64,000 nucleotides of DNA from Elusimicrobiota bacterium (GCA_009773155.1 WOVA01000016.1:25507-89506); one strand, 5' to 3'. Counted from the stretch's first letter, positions 20,557 through 50,917 are shown. The notes: generated from the letters alone by a model not told the origin. Numbers and translations are program-made.

Positions 20557-21654
20557 ATGAGAAAAAAACGCTCTCTCGGGCTGGAGCTTTCGGCCAGGGG
20601 CTCCCTGGAGGCCACGCTGCGCGCGGCCAGGATGATGGCGGCCGGCGAGGACGAGTTCCTGGCGCTGGAGCGGGCGGTGGAAGAGGACCCTCTTTTTAAA
20701 AAGCTGGTACGCCCGCCGGGCGGCGCGTCGCCGGCCGTGCGGCGCCGCAGGCCGGGCGGGGTGAATTTCGCCTGGAACCGCGCCCTGGGCCAGGACATGC
20801 TCGTCGAACCGGGGGAAGTCCCCGCCGGCGGCATGCTGGAAGGGCGCGAGGCCGCCCTGGCCCTTATAAAACGCATTGGCGCCGGGAATTTCGAGAGGTA
20901 TTTTCTTTCAGACGAGCCTGTACCGGCCGGGCGCAGTGCTTCCGGCACCGACAGCGGCGAAAGCCGCCCTGATCCGTCCGCGGAGGCCGCCGCGGCCTGC
21001 GGGCTCGCCCCGGCGGAGTTCGCCGAAGTCAGGGCTTTCACCGCCTCTTTCCTGGCGGCTCATGAGCGGCTGCAGCTGAAGCCCGTCGACCGCCCTTTCG
21101 CCGCCGTGGCGGCCGTCGCCGCCGGGCCGCGCGGCCCGGAACTTTCCTATCTTTCCTCGCGCTACGCGCGCGGGACCTACGACGTGGACCTGGCCGCCCT
21201 GCGCGGGCTGGGGGCCTCGGGCCTGATCTCCTCCGACGAAAAGCGCCGCCTCCGGCCGCTGCTGGCCGCCCTGCGGTCGCTCAACAGCAAGAAGCGCGGG
21301 CTGACGCTGCTGCTGCCGGCCCTGGCCGAGCGCCAGGCCGATTTCCTGCTGGGCCGCATCCCGTCGCCCAGGCCGCTGTCGATGACGGCCCTGGCCGCCG
21401 ACCTGGGCCTGAGCGCGGGCAGCGTCTCGCGGCTCGCCGCCGGGCGCAGCCTGCTCCTTCCCTCCGGTGAGGAAATAACCATACGCTCCCTGTTCCCGGG
21501 CAAGGGCTCCCGCTCGATTGACAGGATAAGGGATATATTGATACAAAAAGGCGGGGATAAACTGACCGACGACGAGGTCGCCGCCCGGCTGCGCGGGAAA
21601 TACGGGCTCAAACTCTCCCGACGCACGGTCAACCATTACAGGGGACGTATCTGA
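20557..21654 (+). CDS. rpoN: Short, divergent RNA polymerase sigma-54-like factor
   Basis: Region-I-like N-terminus (LGLELS...LEATL...DEFLALERAVEEDPLF). C-terminal HTH (PLSMTALAADLGLSAGSVSRLAAGR) and an RpoN-box-like LSRRTVNHYRGRI. At 365 aa it is shorter than typical RpoN. Confidence 0.68.
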   Translation: MRKKRSLGLELSARGSLEATLRAARMMAAGEDEFLALERAVEEDPLFKKLVRPPGGASPAVRRRRPGGVNFAWNRALGQDMLVEPGEVPAGGMLEGREAALALIKRIGAGNFERYFLSDEPVPAGRSASGTDSGESRPDPSAEAAAACGLAPAEFAEVRAFTASFLAAHERLQLKPVDRPFAAVAAVAAGPRGPELSYLSSRYARGTYDVDLAALRGLGASGLISSDEKRRLRPLLAALRSLNSKKRGLTLLLPALAERQADFLLGRIPSPRPLSMTALAADLGLSAGSVSRLAAGRSLLLPSGEEITIRSLFPGKGSRSIDRIRDILIQKGGDKLTDDEVAARLRGKYGLKLSRRTVNHYRGRI

Positions 21655-22751
21655 AAAAACAGGAATCACAATCGCAAGCGCTGCAGCACAGCCTTTTCCG
21701 GTCGGTCTTCAACGAGTCGACCGAGAGGTTCCTGGTGCTCGACGCCGCCGGCGTCATCCGGCTGGCCAATGACAGCGCCCTGGAGCTGCTCGGCTATAAA
21801 GAAAGCGAAGTGGTCGGCCAGGGCGTCGCGAAGCTGGTGCTGGAGAAGGACGCGGCCGAGCTGGAAGGCTTCCTGAAAGCCGTATCCGAAAGCGGCGAGC
21901 TGCGCAACTATAAATTCTACTTCCTCACCTCGCGCCAGAGCATCATCCGCCTCTTCATCAGCATAAAGGCCCTGAGGGACGAGGACGGGAAGCTCGAGGG
22001 CTTCAGGCTGGCCCTCTCGCTGGTCTATCCCGACGAGTGGGCGGCCCTGCGCGACCCGCATTTTTTCCAGGGCGTCGCCAGGAAGCTCGGCCGCCTGACC
22101 TCCGTGGGCCAGCTCACGTCCATCTTCGCCCATGATATCAAGAACCCGCTGCACGTGATACTTTCCACCTCCGAACTGATGCTCTCCTCCGGCGAGCTGC
22201 CGGCGGAATCCCGCGAGAGCCTGGAACTCATCGAGCGCAACGCCCAGCGCGCCTCGCGCATAGTCAAGACCCTGCTCGATTTTTCGCGCAGCGGCATCTG
22301 CCAGCTGCGCCCCTGCTCGGTTAACGATATCGCCGAGCATTGCATCGGGCTTCTCGCCAGCTCGCTGAAGACCTCCAGGATCTCGGTCAAGAAGGAACTC
22401 GGACAGGCGCCCAAGGTGTTCCTGGACCCGCATTACCTCAACAGCGTGGTCTACAATCTGCTCAACAACGCGGCCGAGGCCCTCGGCCCCGACGGGGGCG
22501 AGATAGTCGTCGCCTCCGGCGAGAACACGCCGGGGGAAGCCTTCCTGCGCATAACGGACAATGGCCGCGGCATGGAGCCCGGCGTCCTCTCGTCGGTATT
22601 TCAGCCCTTTTTCACCACCAAGGAGAACGGCACCGGGCTGGGGCTGTACCTGGCCAGGCAGGTCATGAACGAACACAGCGGCCGCATCACGCTCGACTCC
22701 AGGCCCGGCAAAGGCACGTCGGTGACGCTCTTCTTCACCAAGCTGGCCTGA
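21651..22751 (+). CDS. PAS-domain sensor histidine kinase (start uncertain)
   Basis: PAS (LFRSVFNESTERFLVLDAAGVIRLAN), H-box SIFAHDIKNPL, and ATPase N/G boxes (NLLNNAAEA, DNGRGM, GTGLGL). PAS residues extend upstream of the first GTG (21735). The only in-frame candidates are CTG 21651 and CTG 21681. Confidence 0.85.
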   Translation: MKKQESQSQALQHSLFRSVFNESTERFLVLDAAGVIRLANDSALELLGYKESEVVGQGVAKLVLEKDAAELEGFLKAVSESGELRNYKFYFLTSRQSIIRLFISIKALRDEDGKLEGFRLALSLVYPDEWAALRDPHFFQGVARKLGRLTSVGQLTSIFAHDIKNPLHVILSTSELMLSSGELPAESRESLELIERNAQRASRIVKTLLDFSRSGICQLRPCSVNDIAEHCIGLLASSLKTSRISVKKELGQAPKVFLDPHYLNSVVYNLLNNAAEALGPDGGEIVVASGENTPGEAFLRITDNGRGMEPGVLSSVFQPFFTTKENGTGLGLYLARQVMNEHSGRITLDSRPGKGTSVTLFFTKLA

Positions 22752-22772
22752 GCCCCGCCCCCCCATACATCC

Positions 22773-24141
<1,369 letters not shown>

Positions 24142-24146
<5 letters not shown>

Positions 24147-24202
24147 ATTTTTTTCTACAAAATATTGTAGAATAAAATCTACAATGTGGAATAAAGTCTA
24201 CA
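24142..24202 (+). promoter_or_regulatory. Putative enhancer (UAS): three TGTAGA-N6-TCTACA palindromes
   Basis: TGTAGA 24142 / TCTACA 24154 / TGTAGA 24166 / TCTACA 24178 lie on a 12-bp lattice, plus TGTGGA 24185 / TCTACA 24197. The array sits about 80-140 bp upstream of the sigma-54 promoter and starts at the activator stop codon. Confidence 0.6.
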
Positions 24203-24249
24203 CTCACCCTTGTAACAAGTTTTTCACAGTCCCAACAGGAAGCGAAAAT

Positions 24250-24277
24250 ATCCCGTCCGTCAGGCGGGATTTTTTAT
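24250..24277 (+). terminator. Rho-independent terminator after the activator gene
   Basis: The hairpin tcccgtcc-gtca-ggcggga is followed by TTTTTT. Confidence 0.65.
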
Positions 24278-24278
24278 T

Positions 24279-24293
24279 TGGCAACTTTGTTGC
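24279..24293 (+). promoter_or_regulatory. Sigma-54 (-24/-12) promoter
   Basis: TGGCAACTTTGTTGC fits TGGCAC-N5-TTGC with GG and GC correctly spaced. It lies about 75 nt upstream of ATG 24369, which has a GGAGG RBS. Confidence 0.75.
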
Positions 24294-24368
24294 TACTACT
24301 TTTTTCGGGGAACATCGATTTTTCGGTCATCGCTTGACTGGTTTTAATAGTTAGTGGAGGAATAGCTT

Positions 24369-25787
24369 ATGAAACGGATCATTAATCTCCTGACGGCCGC
24401 GGCCCTCTCTTCGCTCCTGTCCCTGCCCGCCTACGCCGCCCCGCTGCTGATAAACTACCAGGGCCGGCTGATAGACACCGCCGGGAACCCGCTGATCGTA
24501 ACAAACCAGCCCATAACTTTCAGGATCTACGACGCTCTTACGGGCGGCAATCTCCAATGGACCGAGAACCAGAGCATAACTCCGGACAACGGCATCTTCA
24601 ATGTCTCGCTCGGAAGCGTCAGCTCTCTCCCCGCCCCGGTCTTTTCCTCCGACGACCGGTACCTCGAGGTCCAGATCGGCGCCGACTCCCCGCTTTCGCC
24701 GCGCACCCGGCTACTCTCCGTTCCCTACGCCGTTTACGCCGCCAATATAGGATCTCCTTCCAGTTCCATCAATGTTTCCACTCATATGGTCCTTTCCGGC
24801 GGCCAGCTCCGCTTCGGTAATTTTGCCTCCGCTCCCTCGGTCGCCGTCGGCGCCGGCGCGATGTATTATAACACCACCAATAACCAGCTCTATTACCACA
24901 ACGGCACGGCCTGGACAGCCCTGGCGGCCGGCGGCATCAGCCCGCTGACCGACAACGGTGACGGCACCGTTACCCTAAACGTGCCTGCCAACAGGGTCGG
25001 CCTTGGAAAAGCGCCCGCCGAAAAGTTGGACGTGGCCGGTAATATCAAGGCCGATTACGGCCTTATATCCGCGACCGCCGCGGTCAGCGGCGCGGTCTAT
25101 GTGGGCTCCGGCGCGAACATCAGCACGATAACGCCGACGGGATTCTTCGGCAGCGGCGCGGGGCTGCTTAACGTGCCGGTGGGCGACAATACGGTGACGT
25201 CGGCCAAGATAGTGGACGACAGCATAATGAACGCCGACATCAACGCGTCGGCCGCGATAGCCAAGAGCAAGCTGGCGGCTTTGAATATAGTGAACGCGGA
25301 CGTGGACGCGGCGGCCGCGATAGCCCCGTCGAAGATAGCGGGCACGGCGGCCATACTGGGCGCGAATACGTTTACCGGCGCGCAGACGTACGCCGCCGGT
25401 TCGTCGCTGGCGGCGGCGGCCGCACAGCCTGGCGTGGCGGTGTCGACGGCGGTCTTCATCGGCACGGGCGCGAACATCAGCACGATAACGCCGACGGGAT
25501 TCTTCGGCAATACAATACACGCTTCCAGCGCCACGCTGACGGGTGACGCGGAAGTCCGCGGCTTGATTAAGGCCGGCTCCACCCCGGCGGCCATAACCGA
25601 TGTCTCCGGCAATGTCTTGGCCTCCAAACTGATCGGGGCAATACCACAAGCTGTCACTGTGTTCGTCTCCGCTGATTGTGAGGCTTTAACCCCAGGGACT
25701 GTGGCACAGTTCTGCTATAACAGCACTTCGTTTATTCTTAATGTTTCGACTAGCACGAATCTCGGAGGCTTTGCTCCGTTGCATTAG
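24369..25787 (+). CDS. Secreted fibre/adhesin-like repeat protein (uncharacterised)
   Basis: Signal peptide MKRIINLLTAAALSSLLSLPAYA. The protein is Ala/Gly/Ser/Thr/Asn-rich with no TM. It has the motifs INYQGRL and MYYNTTNNQLYYHNGTAWTAL and the internal repeat G.GANISTITPTGFFG. Confidence 0.7.
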   Translation: MKRIINLLTAAALSSLLSLPAYAAPLLINYQGRLIDTAGNPLIVTNQPITFRIYDALTGGNLQWTENQSITPDNGIFNVSLGSVSSLPAPVFSSDDRYLEVQIGADSPLSPRTRLLSVPYAVYAANIGSPSSSINVSTHMVLSGGQLRFGNFASAPSVAVGAGAMYYNTTNNQLYYHNGTAWTALAAGGISPLTDNGDGTVTLNVPANRVGLGKAPAEKLDVAGNIKADYGLISATAAVSGAVYVGSGANISTITPTGFFGSGAGLLNVPVGDNTVTSAKIVDDSIMNADINASAAIAKSKLAALNIVNADVDAAAAIAPSKIAGTAAILGANTFTGAQTYAAGSSLAAAAAQPGVAVSTAVFIGTGANISTITPTGFFGNTIHASSATLTGDAEVRGLIKAGSTPAAITDVSGNVLASKLIGAIPQAVTVFVSADCEALTPGTVAQFCYNSTSFILNVSTSTNLGGFAPLH

Positions 25788-25819
25788 TGATAGACCTAAG
25801 CATCCCTCGCCGGCTAATT

Positions 25820-28003
25820 ATGGGCTACAAAAAAGGCGGCATGATACTATTGACTTTCCTTGTCGGCGGCTTGTTCGCCGTCCAGGGGGTTTCTTTTGCC
25901 GCTAACACCCTGGAGACGCGGGCGGTCACGGGCGGGCTGGGGATCTCGTCGGGCACGGCGAAGATACTTGAGTCGGTGATAGGCGAGCTCTCCGGGCCGG
26001 CGCCGACGGGGTCCGTGCGCAAGGTCCTCTCGGGTCACGCCCGGACCAGCCACAGCCCGGGCGCGCTCTACGACATCGCGGTGACCACGCAGCCGGTGGA
26101 CGAAGGGCAGGTGCGGATAACCTTCACCACGCCCGGCCGCGCCGGCTTCCGCGGGCAGCTTTCCTTCGTGGAAGTCAAGATAGCCACCTACGCCATCACC
26201 GCGGCTAATTACGAGGCGATAACTTCGTCGCTGACGCTGACGGCGCTGAGCACCGGCACGGCGGGTCTGACCACTTATTATCACCTGGTCCCCGGGCCGA
26301 CCTATTACGCCGCCGGGCGCGCCCGCGACGCGGCGGGCATGAAGAGCCGCCTCTCGCCGACGCCGACGTTCCTGACCTCGGCCATAGCGCCGGCCCCGGT
26401 CACCTCCATTACTATCGTCAACTCAACCTACGGCGCCGTTAATATCACCTGGAACGTGACCGGCGACGACGGTTTGATCGGCGACCTGACCACCGGCTAT
26501 TTCCGCATAGCTTATTCCAGCGTGCCGGCGGAAGCGGCCCTTTTCAGTTCCGCCAATTACACCACCCAGCTTTCCACCAGCGCGCTGGCCGGCTCCACCC
26601 AGTATCACCGGCTCTCCGGCCTGCAGGGTAATGTGACCTATTACGCCGCCGTCTTCATCGGCGACGAGGTGACCGTCTACGGCGGACTCGGGACCATCGC
26701 GCAGGTTGTCACGATGGCTTATCCGCCGATCCAGTCCGGCTTCTCAAATCTTTCCAGCGACGGGTTCACGGTCAGTTATACGGCCAACAACTACCCCGGC
26801 GCGCAGTACTATATCCAGACGTCCAGCGACCCCGCTTTCTCCTATGCCACGAATTCCGGCTGGATCACGACAAGCTCGGCGTCCTTCTCCGGGCTCAACA
26901 CCAACCAGACTTACTATGTGCGCGGCAAGGCGCGCAATTCGCAACTGGTGGAAACCCAGTATGCGGACCTCGGCAGCGTCTCGCTGACACTCAACGTTTC
27001 AAAGCCCAAGCCGCCGCCCCTGAAGGGGGAGGCCTCCGGCTCCACCATAATCCTTTCCTGGGACCAGGTGGTCTACAACATAGCCGGCGGCACTACCACC
27101 ATAGCCGCGTACGACATCTACTACAGCACCGGGGTCAACGGGGCGGAGAATTTCATCGAGGCCGTCTCCAGCTCGGTGTTCACCAGGACTTACACGCCTC
27201 CCGCGGCGCGCTGGTACTATGTGAAGGCGCGCGACCAGTACAGCCTGCGCAGCGATCCGTCCATATGGGTGAAGAGTACGCTCGACGTGGCGCGCGTGGT
27301 GGCCGCCGACCTCCGCGCCGTGGCGGATATGCCGCCGGACGCGGGCTACCAACTCGCCGCCTCCGGCCTTACGCTGCGGATATCCCACCAGAGCCAGTAC
27401 GAGACCGGGCTTGTGCAGGCCTCGTATAAGGTCTCGCTGCTCGACAATAACGGCAACGAGCGCGTGGGCCTGGACCTGCCGTCCGCGGCCGTCGTGACTA
27501 TGCCCACCACCCGGACCGGCGCCGTGACCATAACCGGCTACTCGCCGTCGATCTCCTATTCCGTCTACGATTACGCCGTCTTCTACTACAACGGCGTGGA
27601 GGACGTGAACATCGGCGGCGCGGTGGACCCGAACTCCGGCACCGTCAGCGTCTCCACAAAGAAGACGGGCGTCTTCAAGGTAAAGCAGGTTATAAGGCCT
27701 TCCTCCTTCAGGATAACCCAGACCGTGCCGCGCAAGATCTTCACGCCCAACGGCGACGGGATCTGGGACGAGTTCAACATCGTCTACGACAACCCGGAGG
27801 GGCTCTCCATCTCCGACGCCAAGGTTTATGACCTCTCCGGGGCCGAAGTGGCGTCGCTGCGCGCCGGCACCTATAATACCAGCGCCTCGCTGTCGTGGGA
27901 CGGCCGGCGGAAGGGCGGCGACAAGGCGGCGGCCGGCATCTATGTCTACCAGTTTAAGGCCGGGTCAAAGTACCATAACGGCACGATGGTGCTGGCGCGG
28001 TGA
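25820..28003 (+). CDS. Large secreted FN3/Ig-like repeat protein with T9SS-type-B-like (gliding-motility C-terminal) domain
   Basis: Signal/TM segment MILLTFLVGGLFAVQGVSFA and repeated beta-rich modules (..YY.RGKARN.., WYYVKARD). The C-terminal IFTPNGDGIWDEFNIVY...GIYVYQFKAG resembles the PNGDG.ND C-terminal sorting domain. Start ATG 25820 is preferred over GTG 25787. Confidence 0.75.
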   Translation: MGYKKGGMILLTFLVGGLFAVQGVSFAANTLETRAVTGGLGISSGTAKILESVIGELSGPAPTGSVRKVLSGHARTSHSPGALYDIAVTTQPVDEGQVRITFTTPGRAGFRGQLSFVEVKIATYAITAANYEAITSSLTLTALSTGTAGLTTYYHLVPGPTYYAAGRARDAAGMKSRLSPTPTFLTSAIAPAPVTSITIVNSTYGAVNITWNVTGDDGLIGDLTTGYFRIAYSSVPAEAALFSSANYTTQLSTSALAGSTQYHRLSGLQGNVTYYAAVFIGDEVTVYGGLGTIAQVVTMAYPPIQSGFSNLSSDGFTVSYTANNYPGAQYYIQTSSDPAFSYATNSGWITTSSASFSGLNTNQTYYVRGKARNSQLVETQYADLGSVSLTLNVSKPKPPPLKGEASGSTIILSWDQVVYNIAGGTTTIAAYDIYYSTGVNGAENFIEAVSSSVFTRTYTPPAARWYYVKARDQYSLRSDPSIWVKSTLDVARVVAADLRAVADMPPDAGYQLAASGLTLRISHQSQYETGLVQASYKVSLLDNNGNERVGLDLPSAAVVTMPTTRTGAVTITGYSPSISYSVYDYAVFYYNGVEDVNIGGAVDPNSGTVSVSTKKTGVFKVKQVIRPSSFRITQTVPRKIFTPNGDGIWDEFNIVYDNPEGLSISDAKVYDLSGAEVASLRAGTYNTSASLSWDGRRKGGDKAAAGIYVYQFKAGSKYHNGTMVLAR

Positions 28004-29109
28004 GCGGAGATATTATGGAAAGGGACGAAAATAAAGTTTCTCTCCTCGCGGCCGCGGCGGCGCTGCTCTTTCTCTCCGCCGCCTCAGCGCGCGCCTCGTT
28101 CACCGATTCGGGTTACGCGGCCCGCCAGGCCGCGATGGGCCAGGCTTTCACCGCCATCGCCGACGACTCCGGCTCGGTGCCCGCCAATCCAGCGGGGCTC
28201 GTGAATCTCTCCGGTCCCGAGCTCACCGCCGTCTACGGCAAGCTCTACCAGGGCCTCTCCGACAATTCCGACATCGGCCGCGGCTATTTCGGCTTCGCTT
28301 CTCCGGTGAAGCGCTGGCTGCCCGGCGCCGCGGCTTTCAGCTGGGACGAGACCCGCCTGACGGAAGCCTACGCCGAAACCTCCTTCTCGGTCTCCTACGC
28401 CACCCGCGCCTGGCGCGGCCTGGCGACCGGCCTGACGCTCAAATACCTGCGCAAGGGCTACGAATCCGATTCTTACACGGCGGTTGACCCGCTTTTCAGC
28501 GGCGGCTACTCCAAGGCCGCCCTGGGCGTAGACCTCGGCGCGCATTACCGGCTCTCGCCGAAATATACGTTCGGCCTGCTGCTGCGCAATATCAACCGCC
28601 CCGACCTGGGCATAGGCGGGAAGGACGCGCTGCCGGCGCAGGGCAGGCTCGGCGCGGCCTACTGGCTGCGCAACGGCGTGGTCAGCCTGGACGCCGGCTT
28701 CGGCGAGGATTTCGAGCTGGCCCTGGGCGCCGAATACGTCCTTCACCACAAGTACCCGCTGCGCCTGGGGCTCAACGTAAACGACGACGCGCGCCGCAAC
28801 GTGAGCTTCGGCCTCGGCGCCAGGATGGCCTCTTTCGGCCTCGATTATTCCTTCACCCTGCCGATAGGCGGCGTGCAGGACATCTCGGGCTCGCACCTGC
28901 TGGCTTTCTCCATGCGCTTCGGCCGGGCCGACGCCGGCTTCTACGCGGCGCAGGCCGATCCCGCCGCCGCGGCCCAGCTGCGGGACGCGCTCGCGGCCCT
29001 CAAGGCCGCCGAGCAGCGCGAGCGCGATCGCGAGCGGGAGATCCTGGACCTGGAGCGCCGGCTGCTGGAGAAGCAGCGCGCTGTCGGCGGGCCGGCGCCC
29101 TCCCGATGA
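28000..29109 (+). CDS. Outer-membrane beta-barrel protein (PorV/PorQ- or PorP/SprF-like), C-terminal coiled coil truncated by a frame change
   Basis: Signal peptide LLFLSAASARA. The motif AAMGQAFTAIADDSGSVPANPAGL resembles that family. Alternating beta-strand pattern ending ...GSHLLAFSMRF, then a coiled coil (EQRERDREREILDLERRLLEKQ), with the stop at 29107-29109. Confidence 0.7.
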   Translation: MSGDIMERDENKVSLLAAAAALLFLSAASARASFTDSGYAARQAAMGQAFTAIADDSGSVPANPAGLVNLSGPELTAVYGKLYQGLSDNSDIGRGYFGFASPVKRWLPGAAAFSWDETRLTEAYAETSFSVSYATRAWRGLATGLTLKYLRKGYESDSYTAVDPLFSGGYSKAALGVDLGAHYRLSPKYTFGLLLRNINRPDLGIGGKDALPAQGRLGAAYWLRNGVVSLDAGFGEDFELALGAEYVLHHKYPLRLGLNVNDDARRNVSFGLGARMASFGLDYSFTLPIGGVQDISGSHLLAFSMRFGRADAGFYAAQADPAAAAQLRDALAALKAAEQRERDREREILDLERRLLEKQRAVGGPAPSR

Positions 29110-29485
29110 ACCCAAAGTTATTATCCCGTCGACCGAAGTCCCCGGCGAATCCATACGCGCGCTCGAGGAGACCCTGAACGCGCTCAAGGGCGAACTGGAG
29201 AAGGCCAGGCTCGAGAGCGAATCCTTCAAGACCCGCGTCAGCGGCCTCGAGGAGCGGCTTAAGACCGCGCCCAGGCCCTCGGCGCCTGCCGTCAGGCCCG
29301 CGGCCCCGGCCCCCGCGCCGGCGGCCAGGCGTTCCTACGAGGCGCAGAAAGGCGATACGCTGCAGAGCGTCGCCGAGAAAGTCTACGGCGACGCCTCGCG
29401 CTGGCCGGAGATCTACAGGGCCAACGCCGCGTCGCTCGGCCGCGGCGGAGAAGTGAAGCCCGGCCAGGTCCTGGTCATCCCCTGA
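29108..29485 (+). CDS. Coiled-coil + LysM domain reading frame without a start codon (probable frameshifted 3-prime part of the preceding gene)
   Basis: The +1 frame is open from 28868 to TGA 29483-29485 and encodes ...IRALEETLNALKGELEKARLESESFKTRVSGLEERL...YEAQKGDTLQSVAEKVYGDASRWPEIYRANAASLGRGGEVKPGQVLVIP (LysM). No in-frame ATG, GTG or TTG occurs before the domain. Confidence 0.6.
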   Translation, partial: EPKVIIPSTEVPGESIRALEETLNALKGELEKARLESESFKTRVSGLEERLKTAPRPSAPAVRPAAPAPAPAARRSYEAQKGDTLQSVAEKVYGDASRWPEIYRANAASLGRGGEVKPGQVLVIP

Positions 29486-29619
29486 CCGGGACCGAGGCCG
29501 GCGCTTTATCAGGGATTTCCCTTTTTAGTAACATTTGCGAAACACGCCGGGTGTAAATTATAGGCGCCGGTACTCCGCCCCGCCGGCGGCAAGGACGGGG
29601 CAGGTGCGGAAGAAAGCAA

Positions 29620-29642
29620 GGACACCATGCGGAATGGTGTCC
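29620..29642. repeat. GGACACC-family palindrome copy upstream of the giant coiled-coil gene
   Basis: ggacaccat-gcgga-atggtgtcc, about 40 nt before ATG 29682. Confidence 0.75.
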
Positions 29643-29681
29643 CCACCCGGCGGAACGATGTTTTTTTTACGGACTTTAACT

Positions 29682-32600
29682 ATGAACGACAAATGGGACG
29701 AATCTTCGCTTAACGAGCAGGCGATAACCGACCTGGAGACGGCCAAGCTCGCGCTGCGCTGGGCGCTGGACAAGCTCCGCGCCAACCAGGAAGAGTCGCT
29801 CAAATCCCGCCAGACGCTGCAGGAGAAAGCCTCGCAGGTCTCCTTCCTCGAGAACCAGGTCAAGGCCAAGAACGCCGAGATGGAGCGGCAGCAGCGCGCG
29901 CAGGAGGAGGAGATCAAGTCCCGCCAGGAGAGCCTGGAGTACCAGTTCAGGTCCCGCCTGGAGCGCCTGACCGAGCGCGAGAAGGAACTCGAGGATAACG
30001 CCGCGAAGCTGGAGGGCTCCTTCAAGGCCCGCGAGCAGAAGCTCACCGACGACTTCCAGAAAAAATCCGAGGAACTGCGCGGCCGCTGGGGCCAGGTGGA
30101 GGCCGAGATCTGGCAGCTGCGCCAGGAGCAGCTGGCCAAGCAGCAGGAGTTCGAGAAGCTTTACGCCGAGCGCCTCTCGGCCGAGCAGAAGCGCGCCCGG
30201 GAAGAGTCGGAGAACTCCCGCGCGGAGATGGAGAGAAATTACGGGTCCCGCGTGCAGGAGCTGGAGAAGCGCGAGCACACGCTGGGCGAGGAGCTCAAGA
30301 AACAGGAAGCGGTGATGAAGTGGGCCCGCGACAGCTGGCAGAAGGACGCCGACGAGCGGGAGAAGAAGCTCAAGGTCCGCGAGCTGGAGATAGAGAAGAA
30401 ACTGCTCGAGAAAGAGCAGGAGATAGACGATTACAAGGTCAAACTGGGCCTGCTCAACAAACAGCTGACCGACCTGCCCGAGGCCGTGCGCAAGCGCGAC
30501 GAGGAACTGGAGCGCTACCGCGGCGCGCTGGACAGCCTGGAAGGCGTGATCAGGACCCTGGAAGGGGAGAAGAGAGCCCTCGCCCAGGATTCCGATTCCA
30601 GGCAGTCCCGCCTGGCCGAGGCGCTCGAGGCCGAGAAGGCCCGTTTCAAGGACCTCGAGAACGAGATCCCCAGGCGCCTCAAGATAGCCATAGAGCACGA
30701 GCGCGCCCGGCTGCAGGAGAAGGTCTCCGAGGTGGAGAAGAACTTCGGCCTGGACCTGCGCAAGAAGCAGGAAGAGGCGGACTACCTCGAGCGCAATCTC
30801 AAAACTTTCGAGGAGACCATAAAGACCCTGCAGGCCGAGCGCGAAGGGTTCGCGCAGAAGACCGAGCAGCTGCAGACCCAGCTCAATATCCGCTCCGAGG
30901 AGACCTCCTTCCGCGAGCGGCAGCTGCAGTCGGAGTACGAGGTCCGCCTCAGGGTGGAGCTCGAGAAGCAGAGCCGCGGCCTGCGCTCGGAGATAGAGAC
31001 CGCGCAGCGCATCTACGAGGACAATCTGCGCCTCAAGATCGAGGAGATCGCCCACCTGCGCAAGGAGATGGAGACCCTGGCCGGCGAGAAGTCCGACCTG
31101 TCCTCCTCCTCCTCCGAGCTGCGCCGCCAGGTGGAGGCCCAGAAGGATAAGTACGAGCGCGACCTGGCCTCGACCAGGGCCGCCCTCAAGGAGAGCCACG
31201 ACGCCGAGCTGGGCCGCCGCATGGAGGAGGAAACGGCGAAGCACGAGCAGGCCCGCGCGGCGCTGCAGAAGGATTTTTCCGCCCAGCTGGAGGGCCTCAA
31301 CCTTATAGTCGCCGAGCGCGAGGCGGAGCTCAACCGGTTCAAGAACGAGGTCCAGCGGATGTCCGCCGAAAAGGCCGAGGCTATTGCGCGGGAGAAGGAC
31401 AAGGCGCGCCAGGACCTGGAGCTGCAGGCGAAGGCGTTCGCCGAGACCGAGAAGATATACCAGGAGAAGCTGCAGCAGTCCGCGCGCAATATCGAGGCCG
31501 TCCGCGTCGAGAAGGAAGAGACCATACTGCGCGAGAAGGACCGCCTCGAGCGTATCTACGCCGAGCGCGAGAAGGATTACGAGGATCAGCTGGCCCGCAG
31601 GGACCAGGAGGTCGTGCGGCTGCGCGAGGACCTGCTAAAGTCGGCCCATGAGCGGGAGACGGTTCTTCGCGAGGTTTCGGCGGAGCGCGACGCGCTGCGC
31701 CAGAAGCTCAGGGAAGCGCATGACGCCGCCGCCCGTGCGGAAGCGCTCAAAGAACTGGAACTGGAGCGCGCCCGCCAGGCCGAGAAGGACAAGTCGGCCG
31801 ACATCCTCGACAAGCGCGACAAGGAGCTGGCCGCGCTGGCAAGGACCAAGGACGAGCAGGACGCCGCCTACCGCCGCTCGCTGGAGGATTTCCGGGCCAG
31901 GCTCTCCGAAGCCGTGGGCAAGATGGAAGAGCTTAAGGCCGTGGCCGAGGAACGCCAGACCCGCGTCTCCGCGCTGCAGGTGGAGATCTCCGAGGCCAGG
32001 CGCCAGCATAACGACGAGCATATGGCGGTGTCCGGCCGGCTGGCCGACAGGGAAAAGCAGCTCAAGTCCCTGCGGATGGACTATGATTCGCTCAAGGCCA
32101 ATTCGGCGGCCGTCACCCAGGAGTCGCAGAAGCAGATTGGCGAGGCGCTGATGCGTCTCAAGGCCGCCGAAGAGCACCGCGGCGCTTCCGAGAAGGCTCT
32201 TTCCGAAAGCCGGCGCGAGATAGATATGCGCAGGGTAGAGCTTTCCAAGAAAGAGGACGAACTGCTAAAGCTGCACTCCGACCTGGAGAGCTCGCGCAAC
32301 TCCGCAGCCCGGACAGTGGAGGAATCGCGCGGCCGCGAAACTTCCCTCAAGAGCCGGCTGGAGGTGCTCGAGTCCGAGCTGGCCGGCCGCTCTTCGCTGG
32401 CGTCGGACCTTACCGCCGAGCTGAAAGCGCGCAACGCCGAGCTTTCAAAGGCGGGGGAAGAGAAGTCCCGCCTGGAGCAGGAGCTCAACGTCAGGCTCTC
32501 GGAATTCAAGCAGCAGCTTGAGTCGGAGCGCAAGGAGTTCCGCCTGTCCTACGAGCGGCTCAACCGCGAATTCGCCGACCGGGAAAAGGCCCTGATCGGG

Positions 32601-33413
32601 GAGGTCAACGCCCTCAGAGGCCAGTTGACTTCCGGCGAGTCACTGGCCCAGGACCTGAAGTCCCGGCTCGAGAGCGCGGAGGCGGCCGGGCCCGGGATGA
32701 AGGCGCGCATAGACGAACTGCAGAAGAAGATCAGGAACATGGAAGAGGCGTCCTCGGGCCTCGCCGAGAGCCTGCTGGCGGCCAAAGAGAGCGCCTCCGC
32801 CGCCGCGGCCCGGATAGAGAAGCTCTCCGCCCAACTGGAGGACGAGAAGAAGCGCCGCTCCTCGCTCGAAGCCGCCAACGAGACGCTCTCCTCGGAACTG
32901 CGCAGGAAACTCGAGGAGTTTTCGGCGGCCTCCTCGTCCGTCAAGGACCTTTCCGGCCGCCTGGCCCGGGCGCAGGAACTATGTGAGACGGAAAAGCGAA
33001 AGCGGGAGGAGACGGAAGTCTATTCCCAGACCTCCGCTTCCGCCCTCCAGGAGAAGGAAGTGGAACTGTCCGACCTGAAGTTCTCCATGAAGGAGCTGTC
33101 TTCCAGGGTCAATAAACTCCAGTCCCTCTACGAGGCCGAGAAGCTCAAGCGCGAGGAGACCGAGGTTTATTCCCAGACCTCGGCCAGCGCCCTGCGCGAG
33201 AAGGAAGACGAGCTCAAGGGCCTCGGGAAGCGCTGCGCGCGGCTGGAATCCGAACTCAACGCCTCCAGGAAAGAGGCGGGTTCCGCGTCGGTCGAGGCGG
33301 CCAGGCTGGCCGGCGAGATCGAGGAGCTCCGGCGCGTCAAGGAAGAGTACGAAAAGAGCCGCAGGCTGGCGGAAAAGCTCAAAGATAAGCTCAAGCTATG
33401 GAAGAAGGAATGA
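29682..33413 (+). CDS. Giant coiled-coil-rich protein (about 1240 aa), no enzymatic domain recognised
   Basis: Almost entirely E/K/R/Q/L/A heptad-like sequence with no TM or signal peptide. Start set at MNDKWDES (29682; ATG 29658 is also possible). The ORF-track TTG 29535 start would read through a palindrome repeat. A C-terminal duplicated block EK.KREETEVYSQTSASAL.EKE.EL is present. Confidence 0.8.
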   Translation: MNDKWDESSLNEQAITDLETAKLALRWALDKLRANQEESLKSRQTLQEKASQVSFLENQVKAKNAEMERQQRAQEEEIKSRQESLEYQFRSRLERLTEREKELEDNAAKLEGSFKAREQKLTDDFQKKSEELRGRWGQVEAEIWQLRQEQLAKQQEFEKLYAERLSAEQKRAREESENSRAEMERNYGSRVQELEKREHTLGEELKKQEAVMKWARDSWQKDADEREKKLKVRELEIEKKLLEKEQEIDDYKVKLGLLNKQLTDLPEAVRKRDEELERYRGALDSLEGVIRTLEGEKRALAQDSDSRQSRLAEALEAEKARFKDLENEIPRRLKIAIEHERARLQEKVSEVEKNFGLDLRKKQEEADYLERNLKTFEETIKTLQAEREGFAQKTEQLQTQLNIRSEETSFRERQLQSEYEVRLRVELEKQSRGLRSEIETAQRIYEDNLRLKIEEIAHLRKEMETLAGEKSDLSSSSSELRRQVEAQKDKYERDLASTRAALKESHDAELGRRMEEETAKHEQARAALQKDFSAQLEGLNLIVAEREAELNRFKNEVQRMSAEKAEAIAREKDKARQDLELQAKAFAETEKIYQEKLQQSARNIEAVRVEKEETILREKDRLERIYAEREKDYEDQLARRDQEVVRLREDLLKSAHERETVLREVSAERDALRQKLREAHDAAARAEALKELELERARQAEKDKSADILDKRDKELAALARTKDEQDAAYRRSLEDFRARLSEAVGKMEELKAVAEERQTRVSALQVEISEARRQHNDEHMAVSGRLADREKQLKSLRMDYDSLKANSAAVTQESQKQIGEALMRLKAAEEHRGASEKALSESRREIDMRRVELSKKEDELLKLHSDLESSRNSAARTVEESRGRETSLKSRLEVLESELAGRSSLASDLTAELKARNAELSKAGEEKSRLEQELNVRLSEFKQQLESERKEFRLSYERLNREFADREKALIGEVNALRGQLTSGESLAQDLKSRLESAEAAGPGMKARIDELQKKIRNMEEASSGLAESLLAAKESASAAAARIEKLSAQLEDEKKRRSSLEAANETLSSELRRKLEEFSAASSSVKDLSGRLARAQELCETEKRKREETEVYSQTSASALQEKEVELSDLKFSMKELSSRVNKLQSLYEAEKLKREETEVYSQTSASALREKEDELKGLGKRCARLESELNASRKEAGSASVEAARLAGEIEELRRVKEEYEKSRRLAEKLKDKLKLWKKE

Positions 33414-36049
33414 CCTCCTCCTCCGGACTGGAAGGCCTGGACGCCGAAATAGACCGCCTCCTGGAGGAAGTGCAATCCAAGGAGAAAGTTTATTCCGCGC
33501 GCGTAGCGCTGCTTGAAGGCGAGCTCAAGCGCCGCGACGGGGAGGTGCACACCCTCTCGGCCAGGCTGGCCGAGTCCGAGAAGACGTGGTTCGCGCGGGA
33601 GCGCGAGCTCAAGGAGAAAGGCCGCTCGCTGAAGGAGGTCCTTGCCGAGCGCGACGCGGCCGCCGCCGACCTTACCCTCAAGGCGGAGGAACTGACGAAG
33701 AAGATCGCCTCCCTCGAAAAGAGCCTGGAGAAGGAACTCACCGCCAACAGGGAGAAGGAAGTCTACATACAGAGCGCCAAGTCGGCGGTAAAGGGGCGCG
33801 ACGCCGAGGTGGAGAAGACCTGGCGTATGCTGGAGGAGGCCCGCTCCGAGATAGCCTCCTGGAAGGCGCAGACCTCCGAGCGCGACTCGCGCCTGGAGGC
33901 CGCCGCCGCCGGGAACCAGGCCCTCGCGCTGGAGATACAGAAGCTCAACAATTCGCTGCAGCAGGCGGCGCAGGGGTTCCGGCACAAGCTGGACATGGTA
34001 AGGAAGGAAGCCGAGTCCGCCGTGCTGGAGAAGTCCTCCGCGCTGGTCCGCGTCAGCGCGGCCGAGGAGGCCATGAATGAGCGGGCCGCCTCCATGGAGA
34101 AGCTGGCCGTCAGGGCCAGGCAGCTGGAAGAGACCCTCGCCGTGCGCGAATCCCGGCTGGCCGAGCTGGAGGACAGGCTTAAATTTTTCGAAACGGTCCC
34201 GCAGTCGGCGGAGAAGGCTTCCGCCGAGACCGCGGCGCTGCGCCGCAAGGAGCGTCTGGTCTCCGAACTGACGTCACGGGTGGCCTCGCTGGAGAAGGAC
34301 CTGACTTCCGTGGAGGAGGACCGGGCGCGGCTGGCCGAGCGCATGCACGTCTCCGAGGCGGAACTGCGCGCCGCCCGCGAGGAGCTGGCCGGCTCGACCG
34401 CCAGGTTAAGGGCGCTGGAGTCGGAGCGCGACTCGTTCAAGAAACTTTCGGCGGAGGCCCAGGAGATGGCCGCCGCCATCTCGGAGAAGTCCGGGCGCGA
34501 GGATACCGAGAAACTCTCTAAAATAGGCGAGAGCCTGCGCCAGGAGCACGTCCGCTACAGTCAGGCGCTCTCGCGGGCCGAGGAACTCGCCACCCGCTAC
34601 GCCGCGCTCGAGGCCGATCACGAGGCGCTGAAAAAACGCCACGACGATTCCGTGGCGGAGAAGGCGGTGGAGATAGAGAAGCTGCGCTCCGACCTGGCCC
34701 AGGCCGAAGCGGAAGGCGCCAGGCGCCTGTCCGAACTGGCCGAGACCGACCGCCGCCGCTACCACGAGCTCGCGGGCGAGATGCAGCAGCTCAGCTCCCG
34801 CCTCGCGGAGAAGGAGATGGAGCTGGAGGCCGCCCGCTCCGGCCACGAGGCCATAAAGGCCGAATGCGCCCGCCTGCGCGAGCACGAGCGCGAACTGCAT
34901 AAGAATTACGAGCGCCAGCTCAAGGACGACAACCGCCAGCTGGAGGAGGCCCGCGCGGCCGCCGCCAGGCTGGAGGGGGAAATGCACGCCATCCATTCCC
35001 GGGAGTCCGCCCTGAAGGCGGAGGCCGCGGCGCTGAAAGCCGAGATAGAGGTCTCCAAAAAAGAGAAGAACACGGCCGCTTCTTCCGGCAAAAAGCTCAG
35101 GGAGCTGGAGTCACGGCTGGAGGAAAAGAACGACGAACTGTCCGAGGCGCGCAAGAGCCTCTCCAAGATCTCGACGGAGAAGGCGCGCTGGCACGAGCGG
35201 GAGCGCAAGCTGGCGGAGGACGGCCGCGGCGGCAAGGCCAAAGCCGAACTGGCCGACGCCGAGCGCCGCCTGGCCGCCAAGGAGCAGGAACTGTCCGGGG
35301 TCTCCGACAGGCTGGAGGCCGCCGCCGCCGAGATCTCCGGCCTGCGCGCCGCGAGGGAGAGCTTCAGGAGCAGGCCCGCCCCGGGCGCCTCGACGGACCT
35401 GCAGGAGCTGGTCGCCGGCATCGCGCACCAGATCTCCAATTCCGTCAGCATAATACGCAGCCACGCCGAGTACTGCCTGGAGGCGCCTAAAGAGTCAGAT
35501 CTCAAAGAGCCGCTGGGCGCGATAGTGCGCAGCATAGTCACCCTGCAGAAGCGCATCGAGGAAATAGCCGACTTCTCCAGGCCCGTTCTGCTGCAGCGCA
35601 AGACCGTCGGGCTCGGCGACATAGCCAGGGAGGCCCTGGCCTTCGCCGCCAACGCGCAGGGGCAGGTCCCTTTCCAGTCCAGGGTCTCCGCCCCTAAAGA
35701 CCTTCCTCCGCTGCGCGTGGACCAGGTCCGCCTGCAGGAGGCCCTGGAGCATGTCCTGACCAACGCCGCCGAGTCGCTCGGCAAGGACGGGCGGATAGTG
35801 GTGGACATACGCCGTTCGTCGGGCGGCCAGGTCATAAAAGTGTCCGACACGGGACAGGGAGTAGAACCCAAGAACCTGCCGGCGGTCTTCGAACCTTTCT
35901 TTTCCACCAGGCCAGGCAAGCTGGGTCTGGGGCTGGCGATAGCCAAGAATATCATCAAGTCGCACGGCGGAGAGATCAAGCTCTCCAGCGAGTTCGGCCG
36001 CGGAACGCAGGCCGAGATCTTCCTCCCGGACGCTCCGGAAGAGGACTAA
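33398..36049 (+). CDS. Histidine kinase with about 620-aa N-terminal coiled coil
   Basis: Overlaps the previous gene (ATGA at 33410-33413). Long coiled coil, then H-box LVAGIAHQISNSVSII and an HATPase (LTNAAESL, SDTGQGV, GKLGLGLAIAKNII.HGG). No TM segment seen. Confidence 0.85.
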   Translation: MEEGMTSSSGLEGLDAEIDRLLEEVQSKEKVYSARVALLEGELKRRDGEVHTLSARLAESEKTWFARERELKEKGRSLKEVLAERDAAAADLTLKAEELTKKIASLEKSLEKELTANREKEVYIQSAKSAVKGRDAEVEKTWRMLEEARSEIASWKAQTSERDSRLEAAAAGNQALALEIQKLNNSLQQAAQGFRHKLDMVRKEAESAVLEKSSALVRVSAAEEAMNERAASMEKLAVRARQLEETLAVRESRLAELEDRLKFFETVPQSAEKASAETAALRRKERLVSELTSRVASLEKDLTSVEEDRARLAERMHVSEAELRAAREELAGSTARLRALESERDSFKKLSAEAQEMAAAISEKSGREDTEKLSKIGESLRQEHVRYSQALSRAEELATRYAALEADHEALKKRHDDSVAEKAVEIEKLRSDLAQAEAEGARRLSELAETDRRRYHELAGEMQQLSSRLAEKEMELEAARSGHEAIKAECARLREHERELHKNYERQLKDDNRQLEEARAAAARLEGEMHAIHSRESALKAEAAALKAEIEVSKKEKNTAASSGKKLRELESRLEEKNDELSEARKSLSKISTEKARWHERERKLAEDGRGGKAKAELADAERRLAAKEQELSGVSDRLEAAAAEISGLRAARESFRSRPAPGASTDLQELVAGIAHQISNSVSIIRSHAEYCLEAPKESDLKEPLGAIVRSIVTLQKRIEEIADFSRPVLLQRKTVGLGDIAREALAFAANAQGQVPFQSRVSAPKDLPPLRVDQVRLQEALEHVLTNAAESLGKDGRIVVDIRRSSGGQVIKVSDTGQGVEPKNLPAVFEPFFSTRPGKLGLGLAIAKNIIKSHGGEIKLSSEFGRGTQAEIFLPDAPEED

Positions 36050-36063
36050 GTCCCGAGGAAAAC

Positions 36064-37236
36064 ATGGCCAAGATACTGATCGTCGACGACGAACCAGACA
36101 TGAGGCTGGCGATAAAGAACGTCCTGCGCCTGAGGGGGCACGAAGTCTCCGAGGCCCAGGACGGTCCGTCCGCGCTGGCCGCGCTGGAGGGCGAGAAGCC
36201 CGACCTGGTCCTGCTCGACATCAGGCTGCCCGGCATGGACGGCATAGAGCTGCTGGAGCGCATACGCAAGATGAGCCGCTCCCTGCCGGTGGTGATGATA
36301 ACCGGGTACGGCCACATACAGTCGGCCGTCGACGTGATGAAGCTCGGAGCCAACGAGTACCTGCAGAAACCTTTCGAGAACTCGCAGCTGGTGGATACTG
36401 TGAAGCGCTTCACTTCCGGGCGCAAGCCCGCGCCGGCGGCCGCCGCAGGGGACATCCCGCCTCATGATGGCGGGGACGCCATGCCGCAGGGCGTCGCCAA
36501 ACCTCTCTTTACCCCGGCCAGGCTGCTGGCCCTGGCCGCCGCCGCCGCCGCCCTGCTTCTTTTTTTCCGCTGGTCCGACGGCCGGCGCAATTACGCCGCG
36601 GCTTACGAGTCGGCCGGGGCCAACGTGTCATCCCTGGTCTGGCGCGGCGGGGACCTCTGGGTCTCCGACTGGCTGGAGCAGAGCCTCTACCGCTACGCGC
36701 CGCGCGGCGGCAAGCTCGCCCTTGCCGAGAAAGTCGCGCTGCCGGGCACCCATATCACCGGCTTCGCCTTCGGCGACGACGCCCTCTACATCTGCGATTC
36801 CTGGGCCGGCGTGGTGCAGGAACGTACGCTGGAGAAGGGGTTCCCGGTGGCCAGGAACCACGACCTGCCGGGCAAGATAACCTCGCTTTTCTTTGACGGC
36901 AAATATCTCTGGACCTGCGATTCGGAGGGCGTGGTCTCGCGCCGGAGGACCGGGGAAGACCTGCCGGTGGAGGCGGAGTTCCGGCTGGCGCATAAGCCCG
37001 ACCAGATCTATAAGGACTCCGGCGCCTTCTGGTCGGTGGTCTCCTCGAGCGGCAGGCTCTACCGCCACCGGCTCGACGACAAACTTTCGGTGGAGGCGGT
37101 CTTTACGGCCGGCGACCCCGGCGCCGACAGGCCCCTGTCGGCCTTTACCTGGAGCAAGGGCAGGCTCTGGCTGGCCAGGGAGGGCGGCAAGAGCATAGGG
37201 GAGTACGGCCCCGGGATATTGAAAGAAACCGACTGA
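36064..37236 (+). CDS. Response-regulator receiver fused to a TM helix and a C-terminal beta-propeller-like repeat domain
   Basis: REC (KILIVDDEPDMR...DLVLLDIRLPGMDG...KLGANEYLQKPF), TM LLALAAAAAALLLFF, then five repeats of the type [LF].W..G.LW..D (SLVWRGGDLWVSDW, ALYICDSW, YLWTCDSEG, AFWSVVSSSG, RLWLAREGG). Confidence 0.85.
   Translation: MAKILIVDDEPDMRLAIKNVLRLRGHEVSEAQDGPSALAALEGEKPDLVLLDIRLPGMDGIELLERIRKMSRSLPVVMITGYGHIQSAVDVMKLGANEYLQKPFENSQLVDTVKRFTSGRKPAPAAAAGDIPPHDGGDAMPQGVAKPLFTPARLLALAAAAAALLLFFRWSDGRRNYAAAYESAGANVSSLVWRGGDLWVSDWLEQSLYRYAPRGGKLALAEKVALPGTHITGFAFGDDALYICDSWAGVVQERTLEKGFPVARNHDLPGKITSLFFDGKYLWTCDSEGVVSRRRTGEDLPVEAEFRLAHKPDQIYKDSGAFWSVVSSSGRLYRHRLDDKLSVEAVFTAGDPGADRPLSAFTWSKGRLWLAREGGKSIGEYGPGILKETD
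36472..36498. repeat. Degenerate GGGGAC-family palindrome inside the response-regulator linker
   Basis: ggggacgccatgccgcagggcgtcgcc (arms gacgcc/ggcgtc) encodes GDAMPQGVA between the REC domain and the TM. Confidence 0.5.
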
Positions 37237-37255
37237 ACCGAAAGGCAGGAAAAAT

Positions 37256-37293
37256 AAAACCCCACCCCCGCCATATGGCGGGGATGGGTTTTT
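37256..37293. terminator. Bidirectional rho-independent terminator ending the locus (convergent with the pilin-like gene)
   Basis: aaaaccccacccccgcc-atat-ggcggggatgggttttt. Confidence 0.78.
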
Positions 37294-49313: not shown

Positions 49314-49340
49314 CCTATGTTTTATGATAAAATCCTAACT

Positions 49341-50815: not shown

Positions 50816-50917
50816 TTTCACCCCTTTTTTTGCTTCTTTTCCCCTCTTTTTCATTAAAATTGCCGTAGCCGGTCTTTTCCGGATACCCTGAAAAGCGCCT
50901 TCCGGCTTTGCTCACAT

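Follow-up and report, generated by a model that had tools for sequence, protein, structure and literature searches.

Within a 64,000-nucleotide stretch of DNA from an Elusimicrobiota bacterium (GCA_009773155.1 WOVA01000016.1:25507-89506; hereafter the window), a block of nine plus-strand genes, P1 to P9, contains four that, judged from gene neighbourhoods in related genomes, are a durable phylum-wide core. These encode P5, a surface protein with a C-terminal domain (CTD) of the type-B-like kind associated with the secretion system known as type IX (T9SS); P6, an outer-membrane barrel with a LysM tail; P8, a soluble histidine kinase; and P9, a response regulator that crosses the inner membrane. 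We propose that they form a trans-envelope module, specific to the Elusimicrobiota, for the display and control of a surface adhesin, driven by phosphorylation from the inside out, a reading that we rate as a serious possibility just short of an even chance. The conservation and tight coupling of the gene set and the domain and fold assignments are established, and from them we infer the mechanism. The cluster is genuine and previously undescribed, and it is built from known types of part, namely an anchor of the CTD/PorV-like kind, two-component signalling and a sigma-54/NtrC circuit; its unusual elements are a response regulator with periplasmic output, a sigma-54 of cryptic character and a coiled-coil domain that is extremely conserved and has no known function. 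The nine genes are as follows.

20557-21654, plus strand: P1, compact divergent sigma-54 of 365 aa (PF04552, Sigma54_DBD)
21735-22751, plus strand: P2, cytoplasmic PAS histidine kinase (PAS, HisKA and HATPase_c; no transmembrane (TM) segment)
22773-24146, plus strand: P3, NtrC-type sigma-54 activator (Response_reg; Sigma54_activat, E 8e-68; HTH_8)
24369-25787, plus strand: P4, variable secreted fibre with a Bdellovibrio-MAT-like N-terminal domain (signal peptide, repeats)
25787-28003, plus strand: P5, FN3-repeat protein with a T9SS type-B-like CTD (weak fn3, CHU_C and FlgD_ig)
28000-29486, plus strand: P6, predicted 14-strand PorV/PorP-like outer-membrane barrel with two long helices and LysM (NCBIfam, AlphaFold2, Foldseek)
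29682-33413, plus strand: P7, cytoplasmic coiled-coil protein of 1243 aa (heptads, 3 prolines, no TM segment)
33398-36049, plus strand: P8, soluble histidine kinase whose N-terminal part is a coiled coil of about 650 aa (HisKA, HATPase_c)
36064-37236, plus strand: P9, bitopic response regulator with a receiver, a TM helix and a predicted periplasmic five-bladed beta-propeller (AlphaFold2)

In the open reading frame (ORF) listing and its translation, all nine genes are co-directional and together occupy 20557-37236, in agreement with the single plus-strand block of a preliminary description made from the sequence of the window. That description had counted eleven genes; the number is nine, with P6 lying in two frames split by a frameshift. 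Each of its domain calls for P1 to P9 was borne out by Pfam and NCBIfam searches. Adjoining genes in the block overlap or are separated by gaps of 5-50 nt, and the overlaps pointed out earlier are real, both the GTGA at 28000 and the 16-nt (or ATGA) overlap of P7 and P8 at 33398/33410. The 16-nt P7/P8 overlap and a P8-P9 gap of 5-12 nt are conserved in relatives. No plus-strand terminator was found between 24300 and 37260, and the terminator that had been placed at the end of the block is indeed there and is bidirectional. The products are mostly annotated as hypothetical in an Elusimicrobia metagenome-assembled genome (MAG; locus tags FD189_1003-1011 and FD154_1244-1252).

Searches anchored on P6 recovered 32 full-length loci from GTDB species genomes, all of them Elusimicrobia, and tblastn combined with ORF maps placed P5-P6-P7-P8-P9 in this order in 22 distinct genomes of the Elusimicrobiales. 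Next to P9 in those genomes stand a convergent pilin gene and then ftsQAZ, and upstream, on every contig that is long enough, come P1-P2-P3 and a fibre gene. A metagenome scan with the fibre N-terminus added about 25 contigs on which P1-P3 are followed by a fibre gene; all five that reach far enough carry P5-P6-P7 too. Distant P9 homologues, 32-41% identical, sit among unrelated flanking genes, and their immediate neighbours recur.

L036: P5 (2094 aa), P6, kinase (284 aa), P9
L069 (Endomicrobiales): fn3 protein, P6 with LysM, kinase (460 aa), P9
L070: rearranged, with kinase (1776 aa), P9, a separate LysM protein and a separate barrel
L071: two CHU_C proteins, P6, kinase (1657 aa), P9
L072: fn3/CHU_C protein, FlgD_ig protein, PorP_SprF-like barrel, an inserted gene, kinase (219 aa), P9
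L073: a protein of 2100 aa, then kinase and P9, apparently with no separate barrel gene
L074: complete arrangement of the order type

It is this recurrence in distant loci amid unrelated flanks that sets P5, P6, the soluble kinase and P9 apart as the core, whereas the sigma-54 head, the fibre gene and a separate P7 are Elusimicrobiales-specific additions. The gene order thus recurs in relatives, but the block is layered, core plus additions, rather than the single 11-gene unit that had been envisaged. Two outcomes that the preliminary description had named as telling against a coherent system were not encountered: the components do co-occur, in the same order and in many genomes, and none of them falls in a well-characterised family with an unrelated role. 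Its view that the combination is undescribed holds for the cluster, of which our literature searches found no description, but not for the surface pair, which has a relative in the T9SS CTD and PorP/PorV proteins. Literature searches on Elusimicrobia with a T9SS and on membrane-anchored response regulators returned nothing relevant.

The AlphaFold2 model of P9 (predicted local distance difference test (pLDDT) score 90.4) comprises a receiver domain (residues 1-117), a disordered linker of 27 residues (120-146), a TM helix (151-175) and a beta domain (178-389), with the propeller beginning three residues past the helix. Model and domain search together uphold the receiver-TM-propeller architecture put forward earlier. 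The receiver matches Response_reg with 118 bits, belongs to the NtrC/NtrX family and is that of a response regulator, its catalytic residues being complete, with D8, D9, D52 and K102 invariant or nearly so in 42 homologues. The solved folds that rank highest against the beta domain are the five-bladed bacterial glutaminyl cyclases 3MBR, 3NOL and 3NOK (TM-score 0.71-0.73, 13-15% identity); the domain has no Pfam match (the glutaminyl cyclase family being PF05096), and the likeness, as modelled, is at the level of fold only and is not evidence of enzyme activity. The full architecture was found only in Elusimicrobiota; beyond the phylum, the receiver domain alone matches.

P5 scores 32.8 bits against CHU_C (PF13585) and 29.2 bits against FlgD_ig, both over the cut-off of 27, and 19.2 bits against TIGR04131, for which the cut-off is 35. 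Unlike the fibre, it is well conserved, with 49-62% identity across the order, and CHU_C is found in the distant loci L071, L072 and L074 too. P6 scores 86.6 bits against NCBIfam PorV_fam (cut-off 90) and has a detectable LysM domain. Its AlphaFold2 model (pLDDT 64) shows 14 strands, two helices of about 40 residues and the LysM domain; for this model Foldseek returned FadL and the T9SS protein PorV (8GL6_F and 6H3I_F, 8GL6 being a substrate-bound complex), and some P6 relatives match PF11751 or PF19572 weakly. In the window, the barrel frame of P6 stops at 29109 and the coiled-coil/LysM tail lies in another frame that runs to 29486. The frameshift, near 29085-29109 within a Pro/Ala-rich linker, is found in both MAG versions of the protein. 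A 99%-identical relative from another assembly (P0019) has an intact P6 of 492 aa, and the more distant homologues are all intact (430-500 aa). Because the homologues are intact and the break sits in a linker of this composition, it is specific to this assembly or strain; an error of assembly, slippage in the repeat or a recent loss of the gene's activity could account for it.

The kinase P8 has no TM segment and almost no proline, and its coiled coil of about 650 aa, followed by HisKA/HATPase, corresponds to the sensor region of about 620 aa that had been described; its catalytic core is AtoS/ZraS-like, as is that of P2. P7, earlier taken as a coiled-coil protein of about 1240 aa, answers to that description, with 1243 aa, three prolines and no TM segment. 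Heptad periodicity is significant in both P7 and P8, and control proteins are without it. Residues 1-480 of P7 align across 17 species with 0 indels and a mean column identity of 85%, while the remainder varies in sequence and length. This domain, which we flag as an indel-free coiled coil of 480 residues with no known function, occurs in only about 12 clusters among 1.84 billion representative proteins, always at the N-terminus. P7 has no Pfam relative, and a profile search of the PDB with its N-terminus gave nothing meaningful. Descent of P7 from a duplication of the P8 coiled coil was rejected (BLASTP E 0.005, versus 0.25 for a reversed-sequence control), as was an identity of P7 or P8 as SMC-like ATPases: they match SMC models only in the coiled-coil arms and far under cut-off, and neither has the ABC ATPase head and hinge of SMC/Rad50 proteins. 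The "cytoskeletal" role given to these proteins is conjecture.

In the mechanism that we propose, P5 would be exported by Sec, and its type-B-like C-terminal beta-sandwich would dock on the P6 barrel, by analogy with the type-B CTD proteins that are anchored on adjacent PorP-like barrels with PorE bridging to peptidoglycan (PMC9143113). A periplasmic coiled coil and a LysM domain of its own would in turn hold P6 to peptidoglycan. P8, the soluble kinase, would phosphorylate the P9 receiver, and the signal would most likely run from kinase to receiver, across the inner membrane to the periplasmic propeller, and on to the P5-P6 complex; alternatively or additionally, P9 may physically couple the P5-P6 complex to a cytoplasmic scaffold formed by the coiled coils of P7 and P8. 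An inside-out flow is the simplest because P8 is soluble and the sole non-receiver domain of P9 is periplasmic. Contact between P9 and the periplasmic arm of P6 would fit the separate LysM protein encoded directly after P9 in L070. In the Elusimicrobiales, a further layer would be added, in which P3 is activated by the PAS kinase P2, binds at the three palindromes and switches on a sigma-54 promoter read by P1, and one transcript extends from P4 through P9; P4 may dock on the conserved P5 stalk via its conserved N-terminal domain. A fuller version we hold only tentatively: an inside-out phosphorelay in which a cytoplasmic kinase, mounted on the highly conserved coiled-coil scaffold, acts through bitopic P9 and its propeller to control a peptidoglycan-tethered PorV-like anchor carrying an FN3 stalk and an exchangeable MAT-type fibre, the whole being independent of T9SS, possibly a precursor use of CTD-PorP/PorV attachment, and serving as a surface dock for MAT fibres.

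Several observations weigh against such a module. It is known here from genes and predicted structures alone, and the direction of signalling through P9 is read from domain order alone. L073 appears to be without a separate P6 gene, and in the window itself P6 is frameshifted. The coiled coil of the kinase ranges from 0 to about 1500 aa between lineages, which makes a single sensing mechanism hard to fit. An outer-membrane translocon for P4 or P5 was not identified, and T9SS core genes were found neither in the 64-kb window nor in any 20-kb locus examined. Other organisms, too, have the N-terminal domain of the fibre, in tandem arrays that lack the core.

The inside-out logic toward an outer-membrane adhesin that we propose for the cluster, exerted by a bitopic protein with periplasmic output, is that of LapD-LapG-LapA (PMC3032545, PMC3032553). 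However, LapD senses cyclic di-GMP (c-di-GMP) by a degenerate EAL domain and a HAMP domain, P9 consists of a receiver and a beta-propeller, and the two have no relationship in sequence or domains; neither LapD domains (HAMP, GGDEF-EAL, LapD_MoxY_N) nor a LapG-type protease was found in P9 or its neighbours. If true, the module would be a phosphorylation-driven counterpart of c-di-GMP/LapD inside-out signalling and would define a class of response regulator with periplasmic output, suggesting that bacteria can govern their surface from within in a manner that is new.

Of the alternatives, a flow in the opposite direction fares best, and we still think it unlikely. Here the P9 propeller would sense the envelope (an unanchored P5 CTD, P6 or peptidoglycan) and tune the uptake of phosphate from P8, so that P9, as a regulated phosphate sink or by cross-talk with P3, would adjust transcription of the sigma-54 operon. 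The NtrC/NtrX affiliation of the P9 receiver and the shared AtoS/ZraS-like character of the P8 and P2 cores speak for it, and a precedent for a two-component system with a CTD as its periplasmic ligand is found in Porphyromonas gingivalis, where the PorA CTD signals to PorXY-SigP by binding PorY (PMC12152298). Yet distant lineages have the core without P1-P3, the core encodes no cytoplasmic output domain, and receiver domains normally take in signals and do not send them.

The same precedent bears on whether the cluster is part of a divergent but genuine T9SS, with P5 as cargo, P6 as a PorP/PorV shuttle or anchor, P8-P9 as a PorY-PorX-like pair, and SprA/Sov and PorKLMN encoded elsewhere, a possibility to which we give still less weight. 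The surface pair invites the comparison: P5 carries CHU_C, P6 resembles the PorV family by profile, at a score below the cut-off, and in its modelled structure, and P6 relatives match PorP_SprF. As in the PorP-PorE-PG1035 and SprF-SprB systems (PMC9143113), the gene for a surface protein with a type-B-like CTD lies beside that for a barrel, in the cluster a predicted 14-strand PorP/PorV-like one with a putative link to peptidoglycan, and the set includes a periplasmic beta-propeller, predicted in the case of P9. The arrangement differs in that LysM is fused to the barrel in the cluster, whereas in those systems peptidoglycan is bound by the OmpA_C domain of a separate PorE, and in that the propeller of the cluster is joined to a receiver via a TM helix. 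A two-component pair and a dedicated-looking sigma factor genetically tied to a CTD protein likewise recall PorXY-SigP-PorA (PMC12152298, PMC7712824), the case in which CTD signalling belongs to a T9SS. However, the sensor of PorY is periplasmic, the PglZ-type output domain of PorX is cytoplasmic and SigP is an extracytoplasmic function (ECF) sigma factor; in the cluster, the kinase is soluble and without a PorY-like periplasmic sensor, the output of the regulator is periplasmic with no PorX-like PglZ/AP domain, and a sigma-54 accompanied by an NtrBC-type pair of its own serves as the sigma factor. The T9SS is taken to be Bacteroidota-specific (PMC7463736), and a T9SS host would be expected in the Bacteroidota or the Fibrobacteres-Chlorobi-Bacteroidetes (FCB) group; the window and all full-length homologues are from Elusimicrobiota, for which no T9SS is described. 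Neither SprA/Sov, PorKLMN nor PorU genes, nor any other core gene, were present in the window or the 20-kb loci examined, and the TIGR04131 score of P5 stays at 19 bits against 35. PorP-PorE anchoring, PorXY-SigP and LapD are the known systems that come nearest, and by the features that define them the cluster does not qualify as any of the three. Should the proposed inside-out module be correct, CTD/PorP-PorV anchoring would work beyond the Bacteroidota and apart from a recognisable T9SS, which bears on the evolution of T9SS attachment.

It is improbable that P7-P8-P9 form a cytoskeletal, pole or division module beside an unrelated surface operon, with the linkage reflecting inherited gene order only. 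In the Elusimicrobiales, the block does lie directly upstream of ftsQ-ftsA-ftsZ, and the conservation of the P7 N-terminus is more typical of a structural protein; but ftsQAZ is lost in L036, L069, L070, L071 and L072, where the kinase and P9 still stand beside P5/P6-type or LysM/barrel genes, and P7 is missing from several lineages that keep the core. Equally improbable is a surface-motility or focal-adhesion-like machine, likened to Myxococcus AglZ/Agl-Glt or Flavobacterium SprB-SprF, in which a P7/P8 track is coupled via P9 and P6 to an external P5/P4 adhesin. Although its parts span the envelope, pilin and PilT-like genes lie nearby and SprB is anchored by the PorP-like SprF (PMC9143113), the cluster encodes no motor of the MotAB, ExbBD or GldLM type, and the coiled coils are dispensable in several lineages.

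The fibre gene P4 belongs to the order-specific layer. P4 and its counterparts have in common a signal peptide and a conserved N-terminal domain of 125 residues, and all eight orthologue N-termini tested match NF053851 Bdello_MAT_N (E 6e-15 to 1.5e-9). The scores, 38-55 bits, lie below the family cut-off of 60 and cover profile positions 2-80 of 162, so the fibres are MAT-like rather than assigned to the family. The shaft of P4 is repeat-rich and species-variable and matches phage tail-fibre PHROGs, and the gene has a GC content of 57.5% against about 65% for the window. The Bdellovibrio MAT fibres (PMC10769870) are alike in their signal peptide, conserved N-terminal domain, variable phage-tail-fibre-like shaft and gene content that is highly variable between strains. 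Those of the Elusimicrobia differ in that many share a small two-cysteine C-terminal motif and in that their genes stand behind a sigma-54 promoter and adjoin P5-P6. The partner that anchors the N-terminus of the Bdellovibrio MAT fibres is still unknown (PMC10769870), and the cluster provides a testable candidate for the cell-surface anchor of MAT-type fibres. Docking of P4 on the conserved P5 through its N-terminal domain is speculative because that domain occurs elsewhere without the core.

The fibre locus appears to be highly repetitive or variable within populations. In L005-L018, L020, L025 and L028 the contig breaks off within the fibre gene, 2-5 kb upstream of P6, and scaffold gaps (runs of N) fall in the fibre repeats in L001, L009, L029, L031, L032 and L034. 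Tandem arrays of 2-5 genes with MAT-like N-termini are present in L109 (9902-20312), L154 (5830-10712), L112, L115, L132 and L152, and neither P5, P6 nor P9 was found near these arrays. The fibre as an obligate partner of the core is unsupported, its N-terminal domain being found elsewhere without the core. In L122 (1518-5466), from a lineage distant from that of the window, an ORF for a weakly P6-like barrel (E 1e-8) lies directly upstream of a fibre gene and may represent an independent fibre-barrel pairing.

The regulatory elements of the block are listed below.

24142-24202, no strand: three 18-bp enhancer palindromes TGTRGA-N6-TCYACA (motif count)
24250-24270, plus strand: hairpin and T-run, an 8-pair stem followed by TTTTTATTT
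24279-24294, plus strand: sigma-54 promoter TGGCAACTTTGTTGCT, with -24 GG and -12 GC
29620-29642, no strand: repetitive extragenic palindrome (REP)-like palindrome in the 196-nt P6-P7 spacer, one of seven related sites in the window where none is expected
37261-37288, both strands: bidirectional intrinsic terminator with a 12-pair stem and T-runs on each strand, closing the block

The enhancer array and sigma-54 promoter that the preliminary description had placed after the regulatory head were both located and are conserved in relatives. The palindrome TGTRGA-N6-TCYACA has three matches in the window, where 0.11 is expected by chance, and none outside 24142-24202. Of 154 loci scanned, 28 have the motif, and in 27 of these its place is between P3 and the fibre gene; the exception is L072, where it is found at 5899, between the P5-like and FlgD_ig genes. 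The -24/-12 promoter beginning at 24279 reads TGGCAACTTTGTTGC; nine related loci have an identical TGGCAAAGTCGTTGCTA at the same position, plus the palindromes, with a conserved GGAGG ribosome-binding site downstream. Because promoter, three enhancers and ribosome-binding site are kept at nearly every base, against an identity of only about 50-60% in the flanking proteins, the footprinting is strong, and enhancer-dependent sigma-54 transcription from this site is well supported by comparative sequence. The hairpin at 24250-24270 is likely the terminator of the P1-P3 unit. With P2-P3, three upstream palindromes and a -24/-12 promoter, the layout is the textbook one of NtrB-NtrC/sigma-54; it differs in its sigma factor, a member of a family of about 350 aa that fails the RpoN equivalog model. 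In one lineage (L086, L087, L089, L090, L092 and L095), about 4 kb separates P3 from the enhancer and fibre gene.

P1 scores 43.3 bits against PF04552 (cut-off 22.8) and has the DNA-binding domain with a helix-turn-helix (HTH) and an RpoN box. A profile of six orthologues matches Aquifex aeolicus sigma-54 (5UI5) with E 8e-23 over the extra-long helix (ELH)-HTH-RpoN region, and the alignment has a Region I-like N-terminus and an invariant C-terminal RpoN box, SRRxVNxYR. Pfam detected neither Region I (PF00309) nor the core-binding domain (PF04963) in P1, the Region I-like motif being visible only in the alignment, and the score against the RpoN equivalog TIGR02395 is 51.5 bits, with a cut-off of 277. 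The family, of about 350 aa, was found only in Elusimicrobia, where it is annotated "hypothetical", and is set off from canonical RpoN by a jump in E-value from 1e-94 to 1e-9. Elusimicrobium minutum, the type species of the phylum, was reported to have neither sigma-54 nor its activators (Francke et al., PMC3162934). As the family is annotated hypothetical, lies far from RpoN and belongs to a phylum whose type species was reported as sigma-54-free, P1 is, on sequence grounds, a cryptic, compact sigma-54, accompanied here by its promoter and enhancers.

P3 contains the GAFTGA motif in its translation and combines a receiver, an AAA+ domain and a Fis-type HTH, as NtrC-type enhancer-binding proteins do, with an identity of about 62% across the order. 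Relatives of P2 are 369-370 aa long and start at the ATG of an ATGA that overlaps the P1 stop; at 21645-21655 the window has CTGA at this place, which leaves P2 with either a CTG start or a shortened form that begins with the GTG at 21735. The CTG near 21649, which overlaps the P1 stop, is the probable true start. In L031, a ribonucleotide reductase large-subunit gene (1831-5442, minus strand) split by an intein with a LAGLIDADG endonuclease domain occupies the position that P1-P3 have in other genomes.

The 196-nt spacer between P6 and P7 does contain the palindrome reported for it, but the element is not specific to the system: REP-like sites of the form GGACACCATGCGGCATGGTGTCC are dispersed through the window at 11337, 11367, 14574, 20473, 29620, 48256 and 50544, where chance predicts none, one copy lying just upstream of P1. 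The gap between P6 and P7 is only 10-50 nt in most relatives. The palindrome as an internal regulatory site was rejected, the element being dispersed and the spacer absent in most relatives.

Upstream of the block lie the housekeeping genes ligA, purH, psd, pssA, metG, holB and tmk; downstream lie a convergent type IV pilin gene, tRNA-Lys, ftsQ-ftsA-ftsZ, a pilT-like gene, cmk and rpsA.

37309-37734, minus strand: convergent type IV pilin gene (N_methyl and weak ComP_DUS domains)

The pilin gene stands beside P9 in almost all Elusimicrobiales loci and is absent from the distant core loci, and it is uncertain whether it is part of the system. A link to cell division through adjacency to ftsQAZ was set aside, as that adjacency is conserved within the order only. 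The gene for the PilT-like ATPase lies directly 3' of ftsZ (41314-42402). Farther downstream, 46680-50420 encodes an 877-aa protein that joins Peptidase_MA to PD40 beta-propeller repeats and, after it, a HEAT-repeat protein of 367 aa. The intergenic region at 50820-51420 holds at least five copies of the motif GGSCTTTCATGGTRTTTT together with two sigma-54-promoter-like boxes, TGGCAAGTTTTTGGC at 51267 and TGGCAACTTTTTTGG at 51392, and downstream of it lies an ORF without a Pfam match (51667-52554).

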